Of a stretch of DNA of 18,053 nt, positions 1 through 18,053 are shown one piece after another; the first letter of the stretch is position 1, and every line of letters begins with the position of its first letter. This DNA comes from a virus. The stretch lies in the IMG/VR virus record IMGVR_UViG_3300045816_000022, one strand, 5' to 3'. Both the position numbers and the translations under genes were made by a program. The notes under the pieces are model-generated. The model worked only from the letters and a program-made list of their open reading frames with translations. It made no database searches and was not told the DNA's origin.

Positions 1-127
1 CCCACTTCTCTACATTGATGACGGTTTTCTCACTGTATTTCGTGGGGATATTCATAAAGCCGCGTAGAAAATCCGCATGGCTATTGTTTTCGGGTTTTGC
101 TTCCTCGGCAAGATCATCGAGGGTAAT
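1..127. repeat. Terminal overlap, copy 1 (identical to 17927-18053)
   Basis: Base-for-base identity by direct comparison of the two window ends. A 127-bp overlap is typical of a k-mer overlap left on circular assembly contigs. Confidence 0.95.
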
Positions 128-2566: not shown

Positions 2567-2782
2567 TTAAAGGTGCGCGGTGTACTTGGTGGGGTCCACC
2601 TTTTCCAGCGCATCAGCAGCAGTGGCCAACGGTTCAGGGTGGCGCAAACGCGGGTTCAACTCGCGGATCACGATCCAACCCAGACGCGGGTCATGGAATA
2701 CGGACTTCACACGGCAGGTGCCCCGCGTGACCTTGTGCCGGGCCAGATCGCCGGGCTTGAACGGCGGCTTAAGCGCGGTCAT
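2567..2782 (-). CDS. Hypothetical protein (71 aa)
   Basis: I trimmed the start to ATG 2782 (MTALKPPF...), which overlaps the upstream TGA as ATGA. This is the last gene of the early operon. Confidence 0.6.
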   Translation of the reverse strand: MTALKPPFKPGDLARHKVTRGTCRVKSVFHDPRLGWIVIRELNPRLRHPEPLATAADALEKVDPTKYTAHL

Positions 2783-2787
2783 GATGC
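2766..2787. repeat. 22-bp direct repeat at a gene junction, copy 1
   Basis: The sequence ggcttaagcgcggtcatgatgc is identical to 3092-3113. It covers the stop/start overlap and the first six codons (MTALKP). Confidence 0.9.
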
Positions 2788-3108
2788 CCACTCCCAGAGC
2801 AGGCCTTCATCGTGGTTGACGGCGGTAATCTCGATAAGCCCGGTCTTGGCGACGGGCGGTGGCATCCAGTCAACTGCGTCAAGGCCAACGTAGGTGGTGC
2901 CTTCGAGACCGATGCCGAACCAACCCGATGCAAAGCACTCTTGCCCCGGTTGAGGCGCGTGGTCACATTCCTGATCGCAGTCGGGGCAGTAGGTGCGGCA
3001 GGAAGCGTCAGGGGCTGCGGTACACGTGAACGTGATCCGCTCGGGGTACGTAGATTCCCCGCTAGGGTCTACGTGGACAGTGACGGCGTGAGGCTTAAGC
3101 GCGGTCAT
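2779..3108 (-). CDS. Cys-rich hypothetical protein (109 aa)
   Basis: ATGA overlaps at both ends. The protein contains FTCTAAPDASCRTYCPDCDQECDH...ECF. No family recognised. Confidence 0.6.
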   Translation of the reverse strand: MTALKPHAVTVHVDPSGESTYPERITFTCTAAPDASCRTYCPDCDQECDHAPQPGQECFASGWFGIGLEGTTYVGLDAVDWMPPPVAKTGLIEITAVNHDEGLLWEWAS

Positions 3109-3113
3109 GATGC
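3092..3113. repeat. 22-bp direct repeat at a gene junction, copy 2
   Basis: Identical to 2766-2787. The two copies are 326 bp apart and bracket gene 2779..3108. Confidence 0.9.
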
Positions 3114-3416
3114 TGGTTCCTGGTGGGCTATGAGGACTTCGAGCTGAAGTGCCATAGCCTGTGCTTCAGCAAGCAACTCGGTCGGGATCGGGCACCACGG
3201 CGGGACTTCACACGGCCATATACGGGTTTTCACCGGGTAACTTGCTTCCCCACGTCGCCACTTCACGCGGGTAGCAGGGCCGGACACGTTGAGGAAGATA
3301 GATTCCGAGGTTACGCGCCACTTCAAGACCTCGGGCTTGAAGTAGCAGGTTGTACCCTTCGTTTCCGGCGAGTCAGCCGGAGCCGGAGTGTAGAACGTGA
3401 TGGTTGGATCGTTCAT
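3105..3416 (-). CDS. Hypothetical protein (103 aa)
   Basis: ATGA overlaps at both ends. No family recognised. Confidence 0.55.
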   Translation of the reverse strand: MNDPTITFYTPAPADSPETKGTTCYFKPEVLKWRVTSESIFLNVSGPATRVKWRRGEASYPVKTRIWPCEVPPWCPIPTELLAEAQAMALQLEVLIAHQEPAS

Positions 3417-3838
3417 GACTGACCGCCTACGGTGAAACTGATCATGCCGGACGGCATACCGCGCATGATCGAATAGGGCAGGTCGAGCACTGCCGCGAAC
3501 ATCGCGTCCTTCTCGCCGTCCGGCACGGCCATATAGACCTCGTTCACAGCGGCGTGGTTACCGTCGAATAGCGCGATGACCAGGCGGGCGGCGCGGGCAT
3601 CGTCAATGTGGATACCCTGCGCGGTGTGTTGTAGACGAGAGTCCACAGCGTCACGGTGTGGCTCTGGCAGAGCGCGGATCAGGCCCACTACCGTCTGGAT
3701 GGTCTGCGAGAGCACCGTGGTGATCTCCACGCCACCATTCACGAACTCGGCCACGAGGTCGGTAGCCGTCTTGTCACGCGAGAGCATGGCTTGGGCCAGA
3801 TCGTTCAACTGGTCACGAGTGAGTTGCTTGACCGTCAT
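3413..3838 (-). CDS. Hypothetical protein (141 aa)
   Basis: I trimmed the start to ATG 3838 (MTVKQLTRDQ...), which overlaps the upstream TGA as ATGA. No family recognised. Confidence 0.6.
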   Translation of the reverse strand: MTVKQLTRDQLNDLAQAMLSRDKTATDLVAEFVNGGVEITTVLSQTIQTVVGLIRALPEPHRDAVDSRLQHTAQGIHIDDARAARLVIALFDGNHAAVNEVYMAVPDGEKDAMFAAVLDLPYSIMRGMPSGMISFTVGGQS

Positions 3839-4080
3839 CGTGTCCACACCTGACCAGTTGGGGTGATCATCAGGTCAGAGCGTGGGTAGAACACGCGGCG
3901 ACCGGTGATCTGAGAGTCACCATCACAAGCGAAGTCAACGAGAGCGCGCATAGGCGGTGATTTAGGTGCCCTCACCTGGTCAATGCGGGTGAGGTTCGCG
4001 TTGCGTTGCGGTAGGTGCGCTTTTTCAGTCGTGTTGACGCACAACGGTACGGGGTGGGGTTTGGTGAGGGTCTTACTCAT
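3835..4080 (-). CDS. Hypothetical protein (81 aa), first gene of the early operon
   Basis: I trimmed the track ORF 3835..4209 to ATG 4080 (MSKTLTKP...). An AAGGAG Shine-Dalgarno sits 6 nt upstream of that start. Confidence 0.6.
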   Translation of the reverse strand: MSKTLTKPHPVPLCVNTTEKAHLPQRNANLTRIDQVRAPKSPPMRALVDFACDGDSQITGRRVFYPRSDLMITPTGQVWTR

Positions 4081-4090
4081 GATTCGCTCC

Positions 4091-4120
4091 TTTACCTGGT
4101 GCAGCAGTGCACGAGATGAT
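4091..4120 (+). promoter_or_regulatory. Candidate promoter for a leaderless transcript of ORF 4127..4504
   Basis: -35 TTTACC (4091-4096), 18-nt spacer, -10 GATGAT (4115-4120), then 6 nt to the ATG with no Shine-Dalgarno. The geometry matches the repressor promoter. The spacer holds the palindrome GTGCA-gcag-TGCAC (4099-4112). Confidence 0.3.
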
Positions 4121-4126
4121 GTGTGA

Positions 4127-4504
4127 ATGGGAATTTTTGGAAAGAAACAGCAAACTCCAGCCGATGCGTTGCCCATGGTTTGGGGTGATCGAGAAACAAG
4201 TTTCACCATGGATGCGGACGGTCTGGCGCGAAACTACAAGAAAGTGTTCGCGCCGCACGGTCTGAAACGTGGCGGCAAGAGTGAGCGGGTCACAGTAGTG
4301 GTGCGTAAGCGCTTTGGTGTGCCCTGGATCGAGTTCGAGGGCGTGTGGCTCGGATTTATTGAGCCGGAAAGTAGCGCAGGGACTCTGGTGAAGCGGGCAC
4401 AAGCCGTGTACGGCGAGGAATTCCGGTGCCGTGCTTACGCATGGCACAGTTGGGAACACGGCGGCTATGGCCTGCGTGTTTTCTTGCCGGAGTATCACGA
4501 CTGA
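4127..4504 (+). CDS. Reverse-oriented hypothetical protein (125 aa); candidate prophage-expressed accessory gene
   Basis: Its amino-acid composition looks natural. By my hand count about 40% of its codons start with G, against about a quarter for the codon-aligned antisense ORF 4073..4498. A hairpin follows its stop. No family recognised, and strand choice is not certain. Confidence 0.55.
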   Translation: MGIFGKKQQTPADALPMVWGDRETSFTMDADGLARNYKKVFAPHGLKRGGKSERVTVVVRKRFGVPWIEFEGVWLGFIEPESSAGTLVKRAQAVYGEEFRCRAYAWHSWEHGGYGLRVFLPEYHD

Positions 4505-4686
4505 ACCCTTTGGAGTCGCACTTGTTCGACCTGTTCACGGTCGAACAAGTGCGAACCAGTAACGCCGGGGAGTTTCAGGGCTGGTTCGAGTAGTCCGCGA
4601 GCAGCCCATTTGTTCACCGTGGCAACCGAGACGTTGAGAATACTCGCAACATCTCGCGTTGTGATCAGTTCACCATTTTTGATCAT
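4495..4686 (-). CDS. HTH DNA-binding protein, excisionase/MerR-like (HTH_17-type); Cro-like by position, possible Xis
   Basis: The 63-aa protein contains LITTRDVASILNVSVATVNKWAARGLL, the typical excisionase-family helix-turn-helix. It is divergent from the repressor across a 91-bp control region. Confidence 0.75.
   Translation of the reverse strand: MIKNGELITTRDVASILNVSVATVNKWAARGLLEPALKLPGVTGSHLFDREQVEQVRLQRVQS
4521..4549. terminator. Perfect 11-bp inverted repeat (CTTGTTCGACC-tgttcac-GGTCGAACAAG), candidate bidirectional terminator/attenuator
   Basis: It begins 17 nt downstream of the TGA of ORF 4127..4504. It lies within the 3' coding region of the convergent HTH gene (residues HLFDREQVEQV). 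There is no U-tract on either strand. Confidence 0.4.
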
Positions 4687-4693
4687 GTCGTCA

Positions 4694-4723
4694 AGATTGA
4701 CGCAAGATTGCTCATATTGTCAA
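4694..4723 (-). promoter_or_regulatory. Candidate leftward (lytic) promoter, leaderless
   Basis: The minus strand reads TTGACA (4723-4718), an 18-nt spacer, CAATCT (4699-4694), then 7 nt to the ATG at 4686. There is no Shine-Dalgarno. Confidence 0.45.
4701..4712. promoter_or_regulatory. Candidate operator O1 (cGCAAgaTTGCt)
   Basis: This 12-mer is repeated at 4755-4766 with 11/12 identity. It has an internal GCAA/TTGC dyad. It lies in the spacer of the leftward promoter. Confidence 0.45.
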
Positions 4724-4743
4724 GACTGCGGTTTGGCGGCGTG

Positions 4744-4771
4744 TTGACCCATGGCGCAAGTTTGCTAAGAT
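4744..4771 (+). promoter_or_regulatory. Candidate repressor promoter, leaderless
   Basis: -35 TTGACC (4744-4749), 16-nt spacer, -10 TAAGAT (4766-4771), then 6 nt to the ATG at 4778. There is no Shine-Dalgarno. Confidence 0.5.
4755..4766. promoter_or_regulatory. Candidate operator O2 (cGCAAgtTTGCt)
   Basis: Second copy of the 12-mer. It lies in the spacer of the repressor promoter and reaches the first base of its -10. Confidence 0.45.
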
Positions 4772-4777
4772 GTTGGC

Positions 4778-5134
4778 ATGTCACAGAATCACGAGTTCGC
4801 GGGCTTGGTCCCCGTGTGGACCTTGAGCGACCGCATTAAAAAAGCCCGTGAGGTCACGGGCTTGTCTCAAAAAGATTTGGCTGAAAAGACTGGAATCTCC
4901 ATGTCTACGATCAGCAACTATGAAAGCGGGGCAACTTCGCCACGCAAGGCACAGATCACGCTGATTGCATGGGCTACTGGCGTGGATCGGGGTTGGCTAG
5001 AAACAGGAATAGCCACCCCAACTTCTCCCGATGGAGAAGAAAAGGCGGCTATTTCCGACAGTGTGCGCTCGAAGGGATTCGAACCCCCAACCTTCTGGTT
5101 GGTGGACAGTTTGACAAACGCTATCGCCGCGTGA
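4778..5134 (+). CDS. XRE/CI-type phage repressor (118 aa, virion-encoded form) with an ssrA-like C-terminus
   Basis: The protein contains LSDRIKKAREVTGLSQKDLAEKTGISMSTISNYESG, a canonical HTH_3 motif. It ends ...LTNAIAA. The tRNA-like attP core lies inside codons 96-107. Confidence 0.85.
   Translation: MSQNHEFAGLVPVWTLSDRIKKAREVTGLSQKDLAEKTGISMSTISNYESGATSPRKAQITLIAWATGVDRGWLETGIATPTSPDGEEKAAISDSVRSKGFEPPTFWLVDSLTNAIAA
5064..5098 (-). other. Candidate attP common core: 3' 35 nt of a tRNA (anticodon-stem 3' strand through discriminator)
   Basis: The minus strand reads CCAGA AGGTT GGGGG TTCGAAT CCCTT CGAGCGC A. The T-stem needs two G-U pairs. No matching acceptor 5' strand, D-arm or anticodon arm follows, so this is a fragment and not a gene. 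Confidence 0.6.
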
Positions 5135-5141
5135 TCGGACG

Positions 5142-6080
5142 ATGCTCCATTTAGTCCCCGATATAGAACCGCATGAATCTTTGCAGGTAGCCGATGTTGT
5201 CTACATGCAAACGATCAAAGGTGATTGGGAAAACGAGATCAAGAAATGGCTCGATTATCTTGCAGCGGCTGGACGCGCAGATTCCACGATGCGGTCACGG
5301 CGGGAACACGTCTCATGGCTTGCACGAGACTTCTGCACATCGAAGCGACCGTTCGAGGTCACGCTCGATGATCTGATGCAATGGGCTGCTGGCTTTACCT
5401 GGGTGATGGAGACCCGGCGCGGGGTCCGCACGAGCGTGCGGCAGTTCTACGCGTGGGCCGTCGATACCGGCCGGGTTGAGGAATCCCCGGCCGAGAAATG
5501 GCCCAAAGTGCCCAGTGTCATTCCCCAGCCTCGGCCCGCCTCGGAACGCGACTATGAGCACGCTCTATCCAAAGCCCGCAAACACCGTGATCGGGTCATG
5601 GTGCGCCTCGCGTGTGAGGCCGGGCTGCGGCGCGCTGAGGTCGCCAGCGTTCACGCGAACGATCTGTTCGAGGACTTAGACGGCTGGATGCTGTGGGTCC
5701 ACGGTAAGGGCGGCACGCTCCAAACGGTGCCACTCACGGACTCTGTGGCGCGTGATCTGATCAATCAGATCAAGCGTGAGAATGACGGGCAGTTGGCTGG
5801 GTGGGCGTTCCCCGGCGAGTGGGGCGACACGGGCCACATGTCGCCCCAGTGGGTCGGTAAGATCGTGGCGCGGCTGCTGCCTGGTGCGGCGACCATGCAC
5901 CAGTTGAGGCACAAGTTCGGCACGGACGTGCACGCTGAGACGGGCGACCTACTCACCACCCAGCAACTCTTACGCCACGCCACGGTTGCTACCACGCAAC
6001 GCTATGTGCGGGTTCCGGCGGAGCGTGCGCGGGCTGCGGTCAAGAACGTCTACGAGGACCGGCTACGGCGTACTGCGTAA
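5142..6080 (+). CDS. int: Tyrosine integrase (XerC/D-like, 312 aa)
   Basis: Catalytic signature visible: AGLRRAEV (Arg), HGKGG (Lys), MHQLRHKF (His-x-x-Arg), LLRHATVATTQRYV (His and Tyr). It starts 7 nt after the repressor stop. Confidence 0.9.
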   Translation: MLHLVPDIEPHESLQVADVVYMQTIKGDWENEIKKWLDYLAAAGRADSTMRSRREHVSWLARDFCTSKRPFEVTLDDLMQWAAGFTWVMETRRGVRTSVRQFYAWAVDTGRVEESPAEKWPKVPSVIPQPRPASERDYEHALSKARKHRDRVMVRLACEAGLRRAEVASVHANDLFEDLDGWMLWVHGKGGTLQTVPLTDSVARDLINQIKRENDGQLAGWAFPGEWGDTGHMSPQWVGKIVARLLPGAATMHQLRHKFGTDVHAETGDLLTTQQLLRHATVATTQRYVRVPAERARAAVKNVYEDRLRRTA

Positions 6081-6086
6081 CCACGT

Positions 6087-6118
6087 ATAGCCCCACACCA
6101 TCGAGGGTGTGGGGCTAT
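6087..6118. terminator. Bidirectional stem-loop between convergent int and lysis genes
   Basis: Perfect 13-bp stem ATAGCCCCACACC / GGTGTGGGGCTAT with a 6-nt loop. It sits in the 51-bp gap between the int stop (6080) and the stop of the last minus-strand gene (6132). Confidence 0.65.
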
Positions 6119-6131
6119 CGTGTGCGGGTGG

Positions 6132-6347
6132 TTACTGGATGACGATCACCACGCCGATCAGGGCGGTGATCACCGCGCCGATCACGATCCTCATGGCCCA
6201 GGTCTGCCATGATTCGAGTTCAGCCACGCGGCGGTCAAGGTCGTTGACAGTGGGCATCTTCTCCACCACGTCATCGAGCTTTGTTTCGATCCGCTCCAAG
6301 CGCTTGCCTAGGCTGAGATAACCCTCTCCCACCGGTGGGGTGGTCAC
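6132..6347 (-). CDS. Small membrane protein (71 aa) with coiled-coil region and C-terminal TM anchor; lysis-cassette associated
   Basis: I trimmed the start to GTG 6347, which overlaps the holin stop as GTGA. The C-terminus WAMRIVIGAVITALIGVVIVIQ is a clear TM segment. An internal ATG (MPTVNDL...) is an alternative start. Confidence 0.5.
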   Translation of the reverse strand: MTTPPVGEGYLSLGKRLERIETKLDDVVEKMPTVNDLDRRVAELESWQTWAMRIVIGAVITALIGVVIVIQ

Positions 6348-6517
6348 GAGGTGGCCTCGGAGTCCTCGGGGGTCAGGTTCAGCAGCGCCAGCACGAGCGG
6401 CAGCACGAGCGGCAGGGCGGCTGGGTCCATCCATCCCAGATACACCGCCAAGGGCGCAAACGCCAGGGCGACGCTGTACACGTACTTGCGGGTAGACCGC
6501 GTGAAAGTGTTCTTCAT
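6344..6517 (-). CDS. Putative holin (57 aa, two hydrophobic segments; resembles r1t-type holins)
   Basis: I trimmed the track ORF 6344..6706 to ATG 6517, which is preceded by AAGGAG. The hydrophobic segments are YVYSVALAFAPLAVYLGW and AALPLVLPLVLALLNL, followed by an acidic tail. It lies directly downstream of the endolysin. Confidence 0.55.
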   Translation of the reverse strand: MKNTFTRSTRKYVYSVALAFAPLAVYLGWMDPAALPLVLPLVLALLNLTPEDSEATS

Positions 6518-6525
6518 GCTTCTCC

Positions 6526-7338
6526 TTAGTTGAACAGGTCTGTACGCACAGACACGTTGGTGATCGCCGCGCCAGGCGCGTCGGTCCACACTTGCCAGCG
6601 CAGGCGGCGACCCTGGGCCAGGGTGCCCTTCTGCGACTGTGAGATGAACGTCTGCCCGGACGTTCCCCGGTGTTCGGTGATCGGGTAGCGGGTCACGATA
6701 GCCCATGACCCGTCTTTGACCTTCTCCACCAGGACGGCGCGGGCCTGCAACGTGAACTCTTGTGGAAGATCCACGGCGGTGATCTGTAGATCGCTGTCGA
6801 ACAGGCCCGGATCGCGCAGAACGGACACGTCGCCCTTATCGTTCATGCGTAGGTATTTCCACTCGCGCTGCGGGAGTTTCTGGGTGGGGGTCTTGTCTAG
6901 CCGGTTGATGCGTTTCACGTGCTCGGGTTCCTTTACTTGAGATGGTGCTGGCGTGGTGGTGAGTGGCCAGTCGCGTTCGGACGCTGCGGCGGTGGCGGTG
7001 TGCTTGATCGAGATGTGAATGTGGCTGGTGTGCGGGTTCAGGCCGGTGTAGGTGCGCCACCCTGCGCCTGGTGTCCAGATACGCCGCTCGAAGATCACGT
7101 AGGCGGTGCGGTCATCAGACATGACAGCGGCCAGGAGCCGGTCAACCTCGATTCCGTCCTTGTCCACGTCGATAGCCCGGACCACACCCCCGGCGCTGTA
7201 GTCCGGGTTGTGATCCGATTTGACGGCCTGGTGACGGGTGTCGCCTATCCACCCGTCTGAGGTCGTGTCGCGCTGCGGCCATTCCTGGTTGATCTGTTCG
7301 CGTAGGCGTACGAGGGATGGGGCGAGATGGTAGGACAT
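6526..7338 (-). CDS. Putative endolysin (270 aa): N-terminal zinc-peptidase-like domain plus unknown C-terminal domain
   Basis: I trimmed the start to ATG 7338 (MSYHLAPS...), which is preceded by AAAGGAA. The motifs DTRHQAVKSDHNPD and NPHTSHIHISI resemble the H..D / HxH ligands of LAS/M15-type peptidoglycan peptidases. It sits between the tail genes and the holin. Confidence 0.6.
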   Translation of the reverse strand: MSYHLAPSLVRLREQINQEWPQRDTTSDGWIGDTRHQAVKSDHNPDYSAGGVVRAIDVDKDGIEVDRLLAAVMSDDRTAYVIFERRIWTPGAGWRTYTGLNPHTSHIHISIKHTATAAASERDWPLTTTPAPSQVKEPEHVKRINRLDKTPTQKLPQREWKYLRMNDKGDVSVLRDPGLFDSDLQITAVDLPQEFTLQARAVLVEKVKDGSWAIVTRYPITEHRGTSGQTFISQSQKGTLAQGRRLRWQVWTDAPGAAITNVSVRTDLFN

Positions 7339-7357
7339 GAGATTCCTTTTCAGTTGA

Positions 7358-17402: not shown

Positions 17403-18053
17403 TCACCACATCTGCAAACCGATGTTTTTGCCCGCGCCATAGGTGGCGACGTGTGCGGCTATCAGCGAGGGGATCGCCGAGCGCGAGCGGCGACGCGAGA
17501 GGGTGGCCACGTCCCCCGCATAGGTTTCGACGGCGTATTTGATTTCCTCGGTGATCTGCGTCGAATCACAATGCGCGAGCACGCCCAGTTCGACGTGTTC
17601 CTTGAACGATGCCCACGACAGCGCGGACGCACGTCCGTCGAGCACGGTCACGCGGTGGCCTTTGGTGGCCAGGCGGGCGGTCACCAGGCGGGCTGGTCCC
17701 CCGTCATCGGCGTACATGGCTTTGGGGCGGGTTTTCTTGAGCAGTTCGAGCAGCCACGGCGTGAGCCAACTCGATCCTTCCCGCTGTTCGAACATGACCA
17801 GGTCGATCCGCGCACCAGACCGTTTGGCCAGGTAGACACTCGCGTAGGATTCGTCAATGGCCACGTCATAGGCCAACGTCCATTCACGAATATTAATGTC
17901 CTCGGTGAATTCGACTGTGCCCTTTTCCCACTTCTCTACATTGATGACGGTTTTCTCACTGTATTTCGTGGGGATATTCATAAAGCCGCGTAGAAAATCC
18001 GCATGGCTATTGTTTTCGGGTTTTGCTTCCTCGGCAAGATCATCGAGGGTAAT
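17403..18053 (-). CDS. terL: Terminase large subunit, C-terminal (nuclease) part; 17927-18053 duplicates 1-127
   Basis: The track ORF 17403..17981 stays open upstream to the window end. Position 17981 corresponds to position 55, and 907-55 is a multiple of 3. The total is 476 aa. Its position just upstream of portal fits a large terminase. Confidence 0.9.
   Translation of the reverse strand: MTLDDLAEEAKPENNSHADFLRGFMNIPTKYSEKTVINVEKWEKGTVEFTEDINIREWTLAYDVAIDESYASVYLAKRSGARIDLVMFEQREGSSWLTPWLLELLKKTRPKAMYADDGGPARLVTARLATKGHRVTVLDGRASALSWASFKEHVELGVLAHCDSTQITEEIKYAVETYAGDVATLSRRRSRSAIPSLIAAHVATYGAGKNIGLQMW
17927..18053. repeat. Terminal overlap, copy 2 (identical to 1-127)
   Basis: Same comparison as copy 1. 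The overlap lies inside the terL coding sequence and is in frame. Confidence 0.95.

Follow-up and report, generated by a model that had tools for sequence, protein, structure and literature searches.

A small environmental phage with attP inside its repressor gene: a probable BPs-type integration-dependent immunity cassette

The window analyzed here is the whole stretch of 18,053 nucleotides (nt) in the IMG/VR virus record IMGVR_UViG_3300045816_000022, in which the gene of a repressor of the XRE type (rep) is closely followed by that of a tyrosine integrase (int; the protein is called Int below). We find that the attachment site of the phage (attP) lies inside rep and that integration into a host tRNA-Arg gene truncates the repressor, which we regard as practically certain. 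We also consider it very probable that these genes constitute an integration-dependent immunity cassette like that of mycobacteriophage BPs, including the immunity logic that is inferred from that system. Positions 1-127 of the window are an exact copy of positions 17927-18053, and the window is thus a circular assembly with a unit of 17,926 bp. In all likelihood, the phage is a temperate siphovirus of 17.9 kb, in which the cassette is composed of a cro-like gene, a control region, the attP-bearing rep, and int; its host, among the high-G+C Gram-positive bacteria, is presumably a member of Micrococcales near Populibacterium.

The repressor in its viral (attP) form is a protein of 118 amino acids (aa) encoded on the plus strand at 4778..5134 (HTH_3, E=3.5e-13), and phrog_2328, annotated as "transcriptional repressor," matches its residues 1-115 (E=3.4e-28). 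The protein consists of an XRE helix-turn-helix domain (residues 20-74), a linker, a tRNA-encoded motif (VRSKGFEPPTF), and a tail (WLVDSLTNAIAA). A previous inspection of the letters by a model (the sequence-only reading) had recognized the 3' fragment of a tRNA on the minus strand of 5064-5098 and had proposed it as the common core of attP. The letters there, CCAGAAGGTTGGGGGTTCGAATCCCTTCGAGCGCA, are indeed as described, and the fragment turned out to be the core: it is the direct repeat bounding a sibling prophage and also the point at which contigs of the integrated phage switch to host sequence, as described below. The core comprises 36 bp at 5062..5097 (TGTGCGCTCGAAGGGATTCGAACCCCCAACCTTCTG on the plus strand) and occurs as an exact direct repeat at both ends of the sibling prophage. 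On the minus strand, it corresponds to nt 40-73 of tRNA-Arg(ACG) plus 2 nt, namely the 3' strand of the anticodon stem, the variable loop, the T-arm, the 3' acceptor strand, and the discriminator, and it occupies codons 95-107 of the 118 repressor codons. The claim that the fragment is read in frame as V96-W107 and is followed by LVDSLTNAIAA stands, and so does the IAA end of the 118-aa protein, but the extent of the fragment has to be corrected, given that identity to the host extends over 5062-5097. At the right edge of the core, base 5098 is G in the phage and A in the host (L001, L003, and L004); because this base is the first mismatch, the removed tail has 12 residues and not 11. At the left edge, the first TG of the core is preceded by ..AAC in the host and by ..CAG in the phage, as seen at attL in L020/L029 and in L005.

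A matching tRNA gene was found in bacteria. When 185,579 species genomes were scanned for the 34-nt stretch TGCGCTCG...CTTCTG, 17 exact matches were obtained, of which 14 were at a tRNA-Arg gene that was intact over the 60 nt shown; the resemblance to a tRNA is therefore not due to chance. Of the remaining three, one is an attL junction (L020), one is a copy with a 1-nt insertion in a metagenome-assembled genome (MAG; L022), and one is a Planktophila fragment diverging after 8 nt (L028). The contigs of the 14 tRNA-Arg genes are labelled as Jonesiaceae, Promicromonosporaceae, Cellulomonadaceae, and Xylanimonas, and also as Sporichthyaceae, Mycobacteriales, Corynebacterium, and Aeromicrobium.

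An alternative would be that the tRNA-like stretch is a functional gene on the minus strand, for a truncated tRNA-like or another RNA, and not a site of recombination. Indeed, the Rfam tRNA model (RF00005) can be aligned end to end with 5064-5121, albeit without a D-arm (25 bits, E=0.0047), and a strong hairpin adjoins the stretch. This score is, however, below the gathering score of 29, ARAGORN detected no tRNA gene over the window, and no promoter-like site was found on the minus strand near the stretch in a consensus scan, while the same stretch is the very direct repeat that bounds the prophage. We hence rejected a functional tRNA gene in the window, in agreement with the previous notion that the cloverleaf is incomplete, and the RNA-gene explanation as a whole deserves hardly any credence.

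Beyond the core, the minus strand of 5098-5121 contains GCGTTTG, which is similar to GCGTTCG in the host and resembles the 5' acceptor strand of a tRNA; the Rfam model therefore aligns 5064-5121 as a tRNA lacking the D-arm. Judged by eye, the flanks beyond the cores of the phages Angel and Barebow, both of which are compared below, are also tRNA-like. This flank at 5098-5121 may be a decayed remnant of a captured tRNA or may reflect an imperfect symmetry for Int binding. Furthermore, in a Cellulomonadaceae MAG (L025:4140-4220), the 3' end of tRNA-Arg is partially duplicated (GTGTGCGCTCGAAGG) immediately beyond the tRNA. This contig was examined as a further lysogen but rejected, because no repressor is present upstream and the partial duplicate simply adjoins an unrelated open reading frame (ORF) of 491 aa. 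In the Ca. Planktophila contig (L028), the tRNA sequence stops matching after ATCCGTAG. The same tRNA-Arg is probably used by other integrated elements.

The integrated state can be read to the base in Populibacterium corticicola, the genome of which (JBHUOP010000002.1) contains a prophage at 487960-505181 with a unit of 17,186 bp. Exact copies of the 36-bp core, in direct orientation, flank it at record positions 487960 and 505146. Over window positions 5062-7348, its identity to the window is 93.9%, and from 7668 through the origin to 2569, it is 88.2%; these regions of 88-94% identity comprise int, the genes for lysis and for the virion, and some of the early region. The two sequences diverge only over window positions ~2570-4993, where early genes are located together with the cro-like gene, the operators, and the helix-turn-helix domain of the repressor; the prophage is therefore a sibling of the phage with a different immunity region. 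At the repressor side of the prophage, the repressor gene shares its last codons with a complete tRNA-Arg(ACG) located on the opposite strand, and the TGA stop codon is supplied by the anticodon stem. At the int side, the host tRNA terminator hairpin is followed by the core, GTTGGTGGACAGTTTGACAAACGCTATCGCCGCGTGA, and int, and the 12-residue tail is encoded identically at this attL.

Several further features of this lysogen are worth describing. Identity between the prophage and the window resumes at repressor codon ~73, marking a swap of the immunity module with the breakpoint at the start of the repressor linker. The core is found at three sites in P. corticicola: the repressor-side junction, the int-side junction (L020:7962-7995), and an empty copy of tRNA-Arg (L027:4202-4235). 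The two tRNA-Arg(ACG) copies have near-identical terminator flanks downstream, and the empty one is a second potential attB. Upstream of int and in the same direction, a host gene of glycoside hydrolase family 6 is located (L029:14620-15000), with ~220 nt and the tRNA terminator hairpin in between. Transcription reading through from this host gene is a possible way for int to be expressed and for excision to occur in the P. corticicola lysogen.

Integration of the window's own phage, and not merely of its sibling, was observed in metagenomes. Two contigs of the Joint Genome Institute (JGI), L003 and L004, are 100% identical to the repressor gene of the window over the part covered, through position 5097. 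Past this position, they read TGAT/TGATCC of the host tRNA, where the window reads TGGTTGG. These two contigs are repressor-side junctions of the phage in the window. The junctions therefore split exactly at the core both in the sibling prophage and in contigs of the window's phage, as the sequence-only reading had anticipated, and none maps to the gap at 6081-6131. Translation across the junction gives the prophage form of the repressor, the coding part of which spans 4778..5095 on the plus strand (106 aa, M1-F106). In the lysogen, the codon TGG of Trp107 becomes the stop codon TGA, which is composed of core bases 5096-5097 and the host A replacing base 5098. Integration thus strips the 12 residues W107-A118 from the repressor; the corresponding codons together with the viral stop codon (5096..5134, plus strand) are present in the attP form only and encode a putative ssrA-like degradation tag. 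The tRNA-Arg itself is rebuilt unchanged upon integration. Meanwhile, int comes to the prophage end opposite to rep, behind the host tRNA terminator hairpin and ~17 kb from the promoter-like site of rep (P_rep). The earlier proposal that integration truncates the repressor is hence borne out, and the layout fits its claim that int is disconnected from its presumed promoter.

Both forms of the repressor are also represented among homologous proteins. A protein search with the repressor gave two classes of homologues, namely those of full length and those stopping at ...GFEPPTF. The former include P0002 (...PTFWLVDGLTNAIAA) and P0005 (...PTYWSVAERFAA), and the tail is near-identical in P0002. 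The latter include P0001, which is 100% identical to the window, P0003 from Populibacterium corticicola, and P0004.

As for the int side, the exact Int protein was found in at least 68 blocks of contigs. In the four Int contigs inspected, the first base falls at or inside the core, except that L005 starts 3 bases before it; contigs starting at the core are as expected, because assemblies break at repeats. In L005 (Logan contig SRR35919830_19590, 17,959 nt), the core has AAC on its left, which matches the host flank in P. corticicola. At core position 17, L005 has G instead of T (L005:1-40, GGGAGTCG); if this G is derived from the host, it suggests that strand exchange occurs to the right of window position 5078. 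The length of L005 equals 3 + 17,926 + 30 nt, as would suit the assembly of a linear prophage from one junction to the other. A metagenome scan for the int-side junction with the host-type left edge gave no matches. A degenerate pattern of the core plus the tail codons gave none in genome contigs and none in viral contigs, in a search that also did not return the fitting site of P. corticicola.

Given this distribution, it has to be considered that the intact rep-int junction in the window might be an assembly artefact, in which the linear contig of a perhaps defective prophage was circularized at the 36-bp repeats. Such an artefact would explain why the exact 118-aa product is absent from a gene index of 153 billion gene positions, why the core together with the right (int-side) flank was found in none of the JGI metagenome contigs scanned, and why most contigs carrying Int break at the core. 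Nonetheless, the terminal overlap of 127 nt far exceeds the 36-bp repeat; reads across the intact attP must therefore have existed, as would, judging from how the assembler works, 127-mers running across rep, core, and int. The contigs of two relatives (L030 and L031) were assembled independently with the intact rep-attP-int junction. Even if attL and attR were recombined, furthermore, exactly the sequence of the window would be obtained, and the gene set is complete in terms of terminase, portal, protease-capsid, tape measure, tail, lysin, and holin. We therefore consider an artefact very unlikely and take the window as the viral form of the genome.

Upon infection, a leaderless rep-int transcript from P_rep would produce the full-length repressor, with its -AIAA end marking it for degradation, probably by a protease of the ClpXP type. 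Because the full-length repressor is degraded in this scheme, immunity would require that Int has integrated the genome beforehand. Int recombines attP with the host tRNA-Arg, such that rep adjoins the rebuilt tRNA and int is placed at the other end of the prophage. The stable, truncated repressor would then bind palindromes of the form KCAAGWTTGM and shut off the divergent early promoter, and a hairpin in the linker codons would terminate the rebuilt tRNA. Excision would restore the unstable repressor and thereby lead to lytic growth.

The sites assumed in this scheme are located in a control region of 91 bp (4687..4777) between the cro-like gene and rep. A P_rep-like promoter (TTGACC-16-TAAGAT with an upstream TG) was found by a consensus scan at 4744-4771 on the plus strand; since it ends 6 nt before the ATG at 4778, a leaderless rep mRNA is predicted. 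A pattern search located the palindrome KCAAGWTTGM at 4691-4700, 4702-4711, and 4756-4765. These three copies are the only ones in the window, against a chance expectation of 0.23, and none of 200 shuffled sequences reached three; the -35 and -10 elements of the P_rep-like site flank the third copy. The palindromes are hence candidate operators of the repressor. No convincing consensus was found for the divergent early promoter (P_R).

The tyrosine integrase is encoded on the plus strand at 5142..6080 (312 aa; PF00589, E=3.7e-18). The previous description of int as starting 7 nt past the rep stop codon holds for the ATG at 5142, but public gene callers start at Met22 (base 5205, giving 291 aa), and the gap between rep and int is therefore given as 7-70 nt; residues 1-17 of Int are weakly conserved among close relatives. 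In line with the impression that int has no visible promoter of its own, no sigma-70-like site was found in a consensus scan of the plus strand over 4772-6080. In the alignment, the catalytic residues of Int (R, K, H-x-x-R, H, and Y) do not vary, and its sole Pfam match is PF00589, as would be expected if an arm-binding domain is missing. The divergent first early gene (4495..4686, minus strand) encodes a 63-aa protein of the HTH_17 or excisionase/MerR-like type (PF12728, E=1.9e-8) with PHROG matches to families of MerR-like regulators and excisionases. It occupies the cro position of the BPs-type cassette, and this position is kept in L001, L030, and L031. A separate directionality factor is possible, since the divergent gene matches HTH_17 families of the excisionase type. 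The order of HTH_17 gene, rep, and int is common to L001, L030, L031, Barebow, SallySpecial, and Angel.

How far the loss of the tail matters for immunity is the next issue. In BPs, the viral repressor gp33-136 is degraded via its C-terminal ssrA-like tag, whereas the prophage form gp33-103 is stable and active; also, the A135E change results in higher lysogeny, and the BPs Int is likewise tagged (PMC4557955, PMC3694055). By analogy, the -AIAA end of the 118-aa repressor would be a degradation signal. We examined the C-terminal ends of small repressor homologues obtained by a profile search of 1.84 billion representative proteins. The motif VR(S/P)(K/E)G(F/L)EPPTF is shared. Among the 21 small homologues with the same motif, eight stop right after PTF/PTY and 13 are extended; seven of these 13 end in AA and 11 in A, while other endings include VA and AS. 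This excess of AA (7/13) corresponds to a binomial p of 3e-8 against an assumed background of 3%. The background had to be assumed because homologues without GFEPPTF were unusable as a control: such motif-less proteins were considered for this purpose but rejected, as they are mostly integration-dependent repressors on other tRNAs. Indeed, 34 of 60 homologues without GFEPPTF end in AA, and 41 of 73 do so among all extended small homologues. The C-terminal peptides of most small homologues (P0173-P0276) resemble the T-arms of other tRNAs in antisense (DSNPEP, GLEPRTR, ESNRRP, and GTRTPNP). From these sequences, the family of integration-dependent repressors appears to be very large in metagenomes and spread over many tRNA targets.

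It is conceivable, however, that the truncation at attP is real but immunity does not depend on it; that is, both forms would be stable and active, the overlap of rep with attP would reflect compaction of an 18-kb genome, and the tail would have no regulatory role. The tail varies in sequence and from 9 to ~50 residues in length among relatives, and in BPs itself, gp33-136 and gp33-103 bind DNA similarly, which speaks for no effect of the tail on binding (PMC4557955). On the other hand, the ends of the tails are strongly non-random, given the AA endings in the 7/13 and 41/73 extended forms above, and the tail is identical in the heteroimmune sibling despite its diverged DNA-binding domain. Moreover, the homologous BPs protein was experimentally found to be degraded via its C-terminal end (PMC4557955). 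We thus consider a truncation without consequence for immunity improbable and prefer the integration-dependent switch.

Several observations nonetheless count against the cassette as a BPs-type switch or against parts of its evidence. The instability of the 118-aa form, the activity of the 106-aa form, and the dependence on a protease are inferred for this phage, and the promoter and operator calls are consensus matches. The C-terminus of Int, -RRTA (...RLRRTA), has no clear ssrA-like tag, and those of its close relatives are -PA, -VA, and -AAA. Among relatives, the endings are -RPA, -RVA, -AAA, -TAA, -IAS, and -WAA, and 32 of 120 Int homologues end in AA and 63 in A. The 63-aa protein in the cro position did not align with gp34 of Angel in Cluster G; because it is excisionase-like, the control of recombination direction may be different. 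To these points are added the absence of the exact 118-aa protein from the gene index and of the core with its int-side flank from the JGI contigs, both already mentioned, and the fact that L005, with 3 nt of host-like flank, is the single int-side junction of the window's phage.

The hairpin in the linker codons of the repressor (5004..5057, minus strand) has a folding energy of -33.5 kcal/mol (z=-4.35). On the strand of the tRNA, it starts a few bases past the 3' end of the tRNA, and a U-rich run (CUGUUUCU) comes after it. The hairpin is also present in the P. corticicola prophage, L030, and Barebow, in which the letters of the stem are different but pairing is kept; compensatory changes were found in four of 24 pairs (three sequences). 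Because the host terminator is left at the int-side junction, we read the hairpin as a replacement terminator supplied by the phage, and on the evidence of three to four sequences, it is probably the terminator for the rebuilt tRNA-Arg.

The ~130 bp at 5004-5134 may carry several overlapping codes: the repressor linker, the tRNA-derived motif, the tail, and the attP core on one strand, and tRNA-Arg nt 40-73 and the hairpin on the other. In the extended homologues, the residue after PTF/PTY is W in seven, C in two, and R in one; the codons of W and C begin with TG, and the junction TGA thus has the look of a conserved design. Phage-derived TG and an A from base 39 of the host tRNA seem to form the junction stop codon across the family. 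The tail-coding DNA, furthermore, looks like a decayed relic of the 5' half of the tRNA, which would suggest that a degradation tag was born from a captured tRNA gene read in antisense. Taken as a whole, the combination of overlapping codes, a conserved junction-stop design, and a tag from a captured antisense tRNA is a tentative idea, to which we give clearly less than even chances.

Among known systems, the mycobacteriophages of Cluster G (BPs, Halo, and Angel; int 32, rep 33, and cro 34; PMC4557955) have the same gene order and orientation as the window. With Angel, the identity is 41% for the repressor (gp33, E=7e-19) and 42% over 275 aa for Int (gp32, E=3e-58). In both systems, attP is in the 3' part of rep and corresponds to an antisense tRNA 3' end encoding the peptide VR.(E/K)GFEPPTF, the prophage form ends after PTF, the viral tail ends in small residues, and a short control region contains palindromic operators, which are candidates in the case of the window. 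In layout, in the shortening of the repressor by integration, and in homology, the cassette corresponds to the published type. The differences are as follows: the tail has 12 residues in the window but 33 in BPs, and its AIAA end is nearer to the canonical ssrA end than -KAS of Angel gp33. Int has 291-312 aa as compared with 398 aa in Angel. Also, the gene in the cro position and the virion genes are unrelated to those of Cluster G, the genome is 17.9 kb instead of ~41 kb, and the host belongs to Micrococcales instead of Mycobacterium.

Similar switches have been described in other small phages. About half of the Gordonia phages with a tyrosine integrase and an identifiable attP show features of integration-dependent immunity, and those of Cluster CW (Jeanie, McGonagall, GMA5, and GRU3) are siphoviruses of 16-18 kb for which such a system is reported, with a 37-bp attP in rep and attB at tRNA-Lys (PMC5559632). 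The repressors of Cluster CW and of SallySpecial are 42-49% identical to that of the window, and in SallySpecial, the repressor ends with -SAA and Int with -WAA. These phages are different from the window in using tRNA-Lys instead of tRNA-Arg, in their motif (IRDSNPEPAD), and in the host order (Mycobacteriales), and megablast found no nucleotide similarity between them and the window. In Bifidobacterium, the small prophages Bb423phi2 and 689b-1 have int adjoining attL and the repressor adjoining attR, and their viral genomes constructed in silico give a longer, viral form of the repressor (PMC6109161). The host family of these prophages differs from that of the window, and the likeness is one of description. 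A literature search for this kind of immunity also pointed to the genome announcement of a Streptomyces phage (PMC12243558).

Among isolated phages, the closest repressor is that of Curtobacterium phage Barebow (PQ868957, 18,292 bp), with 51% identity; its Int is 40% identical. Barebow shares with the window the order of the cassette, a tRNA-Arg core with one mismatch, a hairpin upstream of the core, and a host in Micrococcales, whereas its tail has 28 aa and ends with -RAS. The record names the repressor only "helix-turn-helix DNA binding protein," we found no literature on this phage, and there is no similarity to the window at the megablast level.

The sequence-only reading had suggested that the switch is newly extended to small genomes and to other phages. 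This suggestion does not hold, because the switch was already described in Gordonia phages, including the 17-kb ones of Cluster CW, and in Bifidobacterium (PMC5559632, PMC6109161). Publications thus already cover the mechanism, its occurrence in small genomes, and its extension to phages other than mycobacteriophages, and the conceptual gain is little. What is new is modest: the host lineage, the virion module similar to that of Cluster EE (see below), and the unusually complete natural evidence for both forms. Namely, both attP and the integrated form were captured for one environmental phage, and the ~90%-identical prophage in cultured Populibacterium corticicola KCTC 33576 defines the core with single-base precision. 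Jonesiaceae and related Micrococcales are thereby added to the documented hosts of the switch. The compact cassette of ~1.6 kb, from the cro-like gene to int, is a possible integration vector or synthetic switch for these bacteria.

As for the rest of the genome, the window has a G+C content of 60.5%, and no nucleotide match resulted when the whole window was compared by megablast with 50,697 phage records (INPHARED). The nearest portal proteins, with 40% amino acid identity, are those of ~17.4-kb Microbacterium phages, which we take to be Cluster EE. Microbacterium phages of Cluster EE are lytic and are not known to have an integrase or a repressor; they are similar to the window in genome size and have the closest known virion module. 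Nearly all genes in the window are on the minus strand, including those for an XhlA-type holin, a lysin, a 677-aa minor tail protein, a 970-aa tape measure protein, a protease-capsid fusion, and a portal, as well as the early genes. On the plus strand, confident assignments were made for two ORFs, namely the repressor and the integrase described above. Judging from the gene order in a sibling contig (L002), the gene of the large terminase probably spans the ends of the window, where the terminal overlap (1..127, identical to 17927-18053 over 127 nt) is located.

Two long ORFs, 4127-4504 on the plus strand and 4073-4498 on the minus strand, overlap each other in the interval from the early genes to the cro-like gene; neither of them has a PHROG match. 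The plus-strand ORF (125 aa) is called by JGI and would share the direction of rep. Finally, a GC-rich inverted repeat (6082..6119), detected as an inverted self-match between the convergent int and holin genes, is kept in the P. corticicola prophage and is probably a bidirectional terminator.

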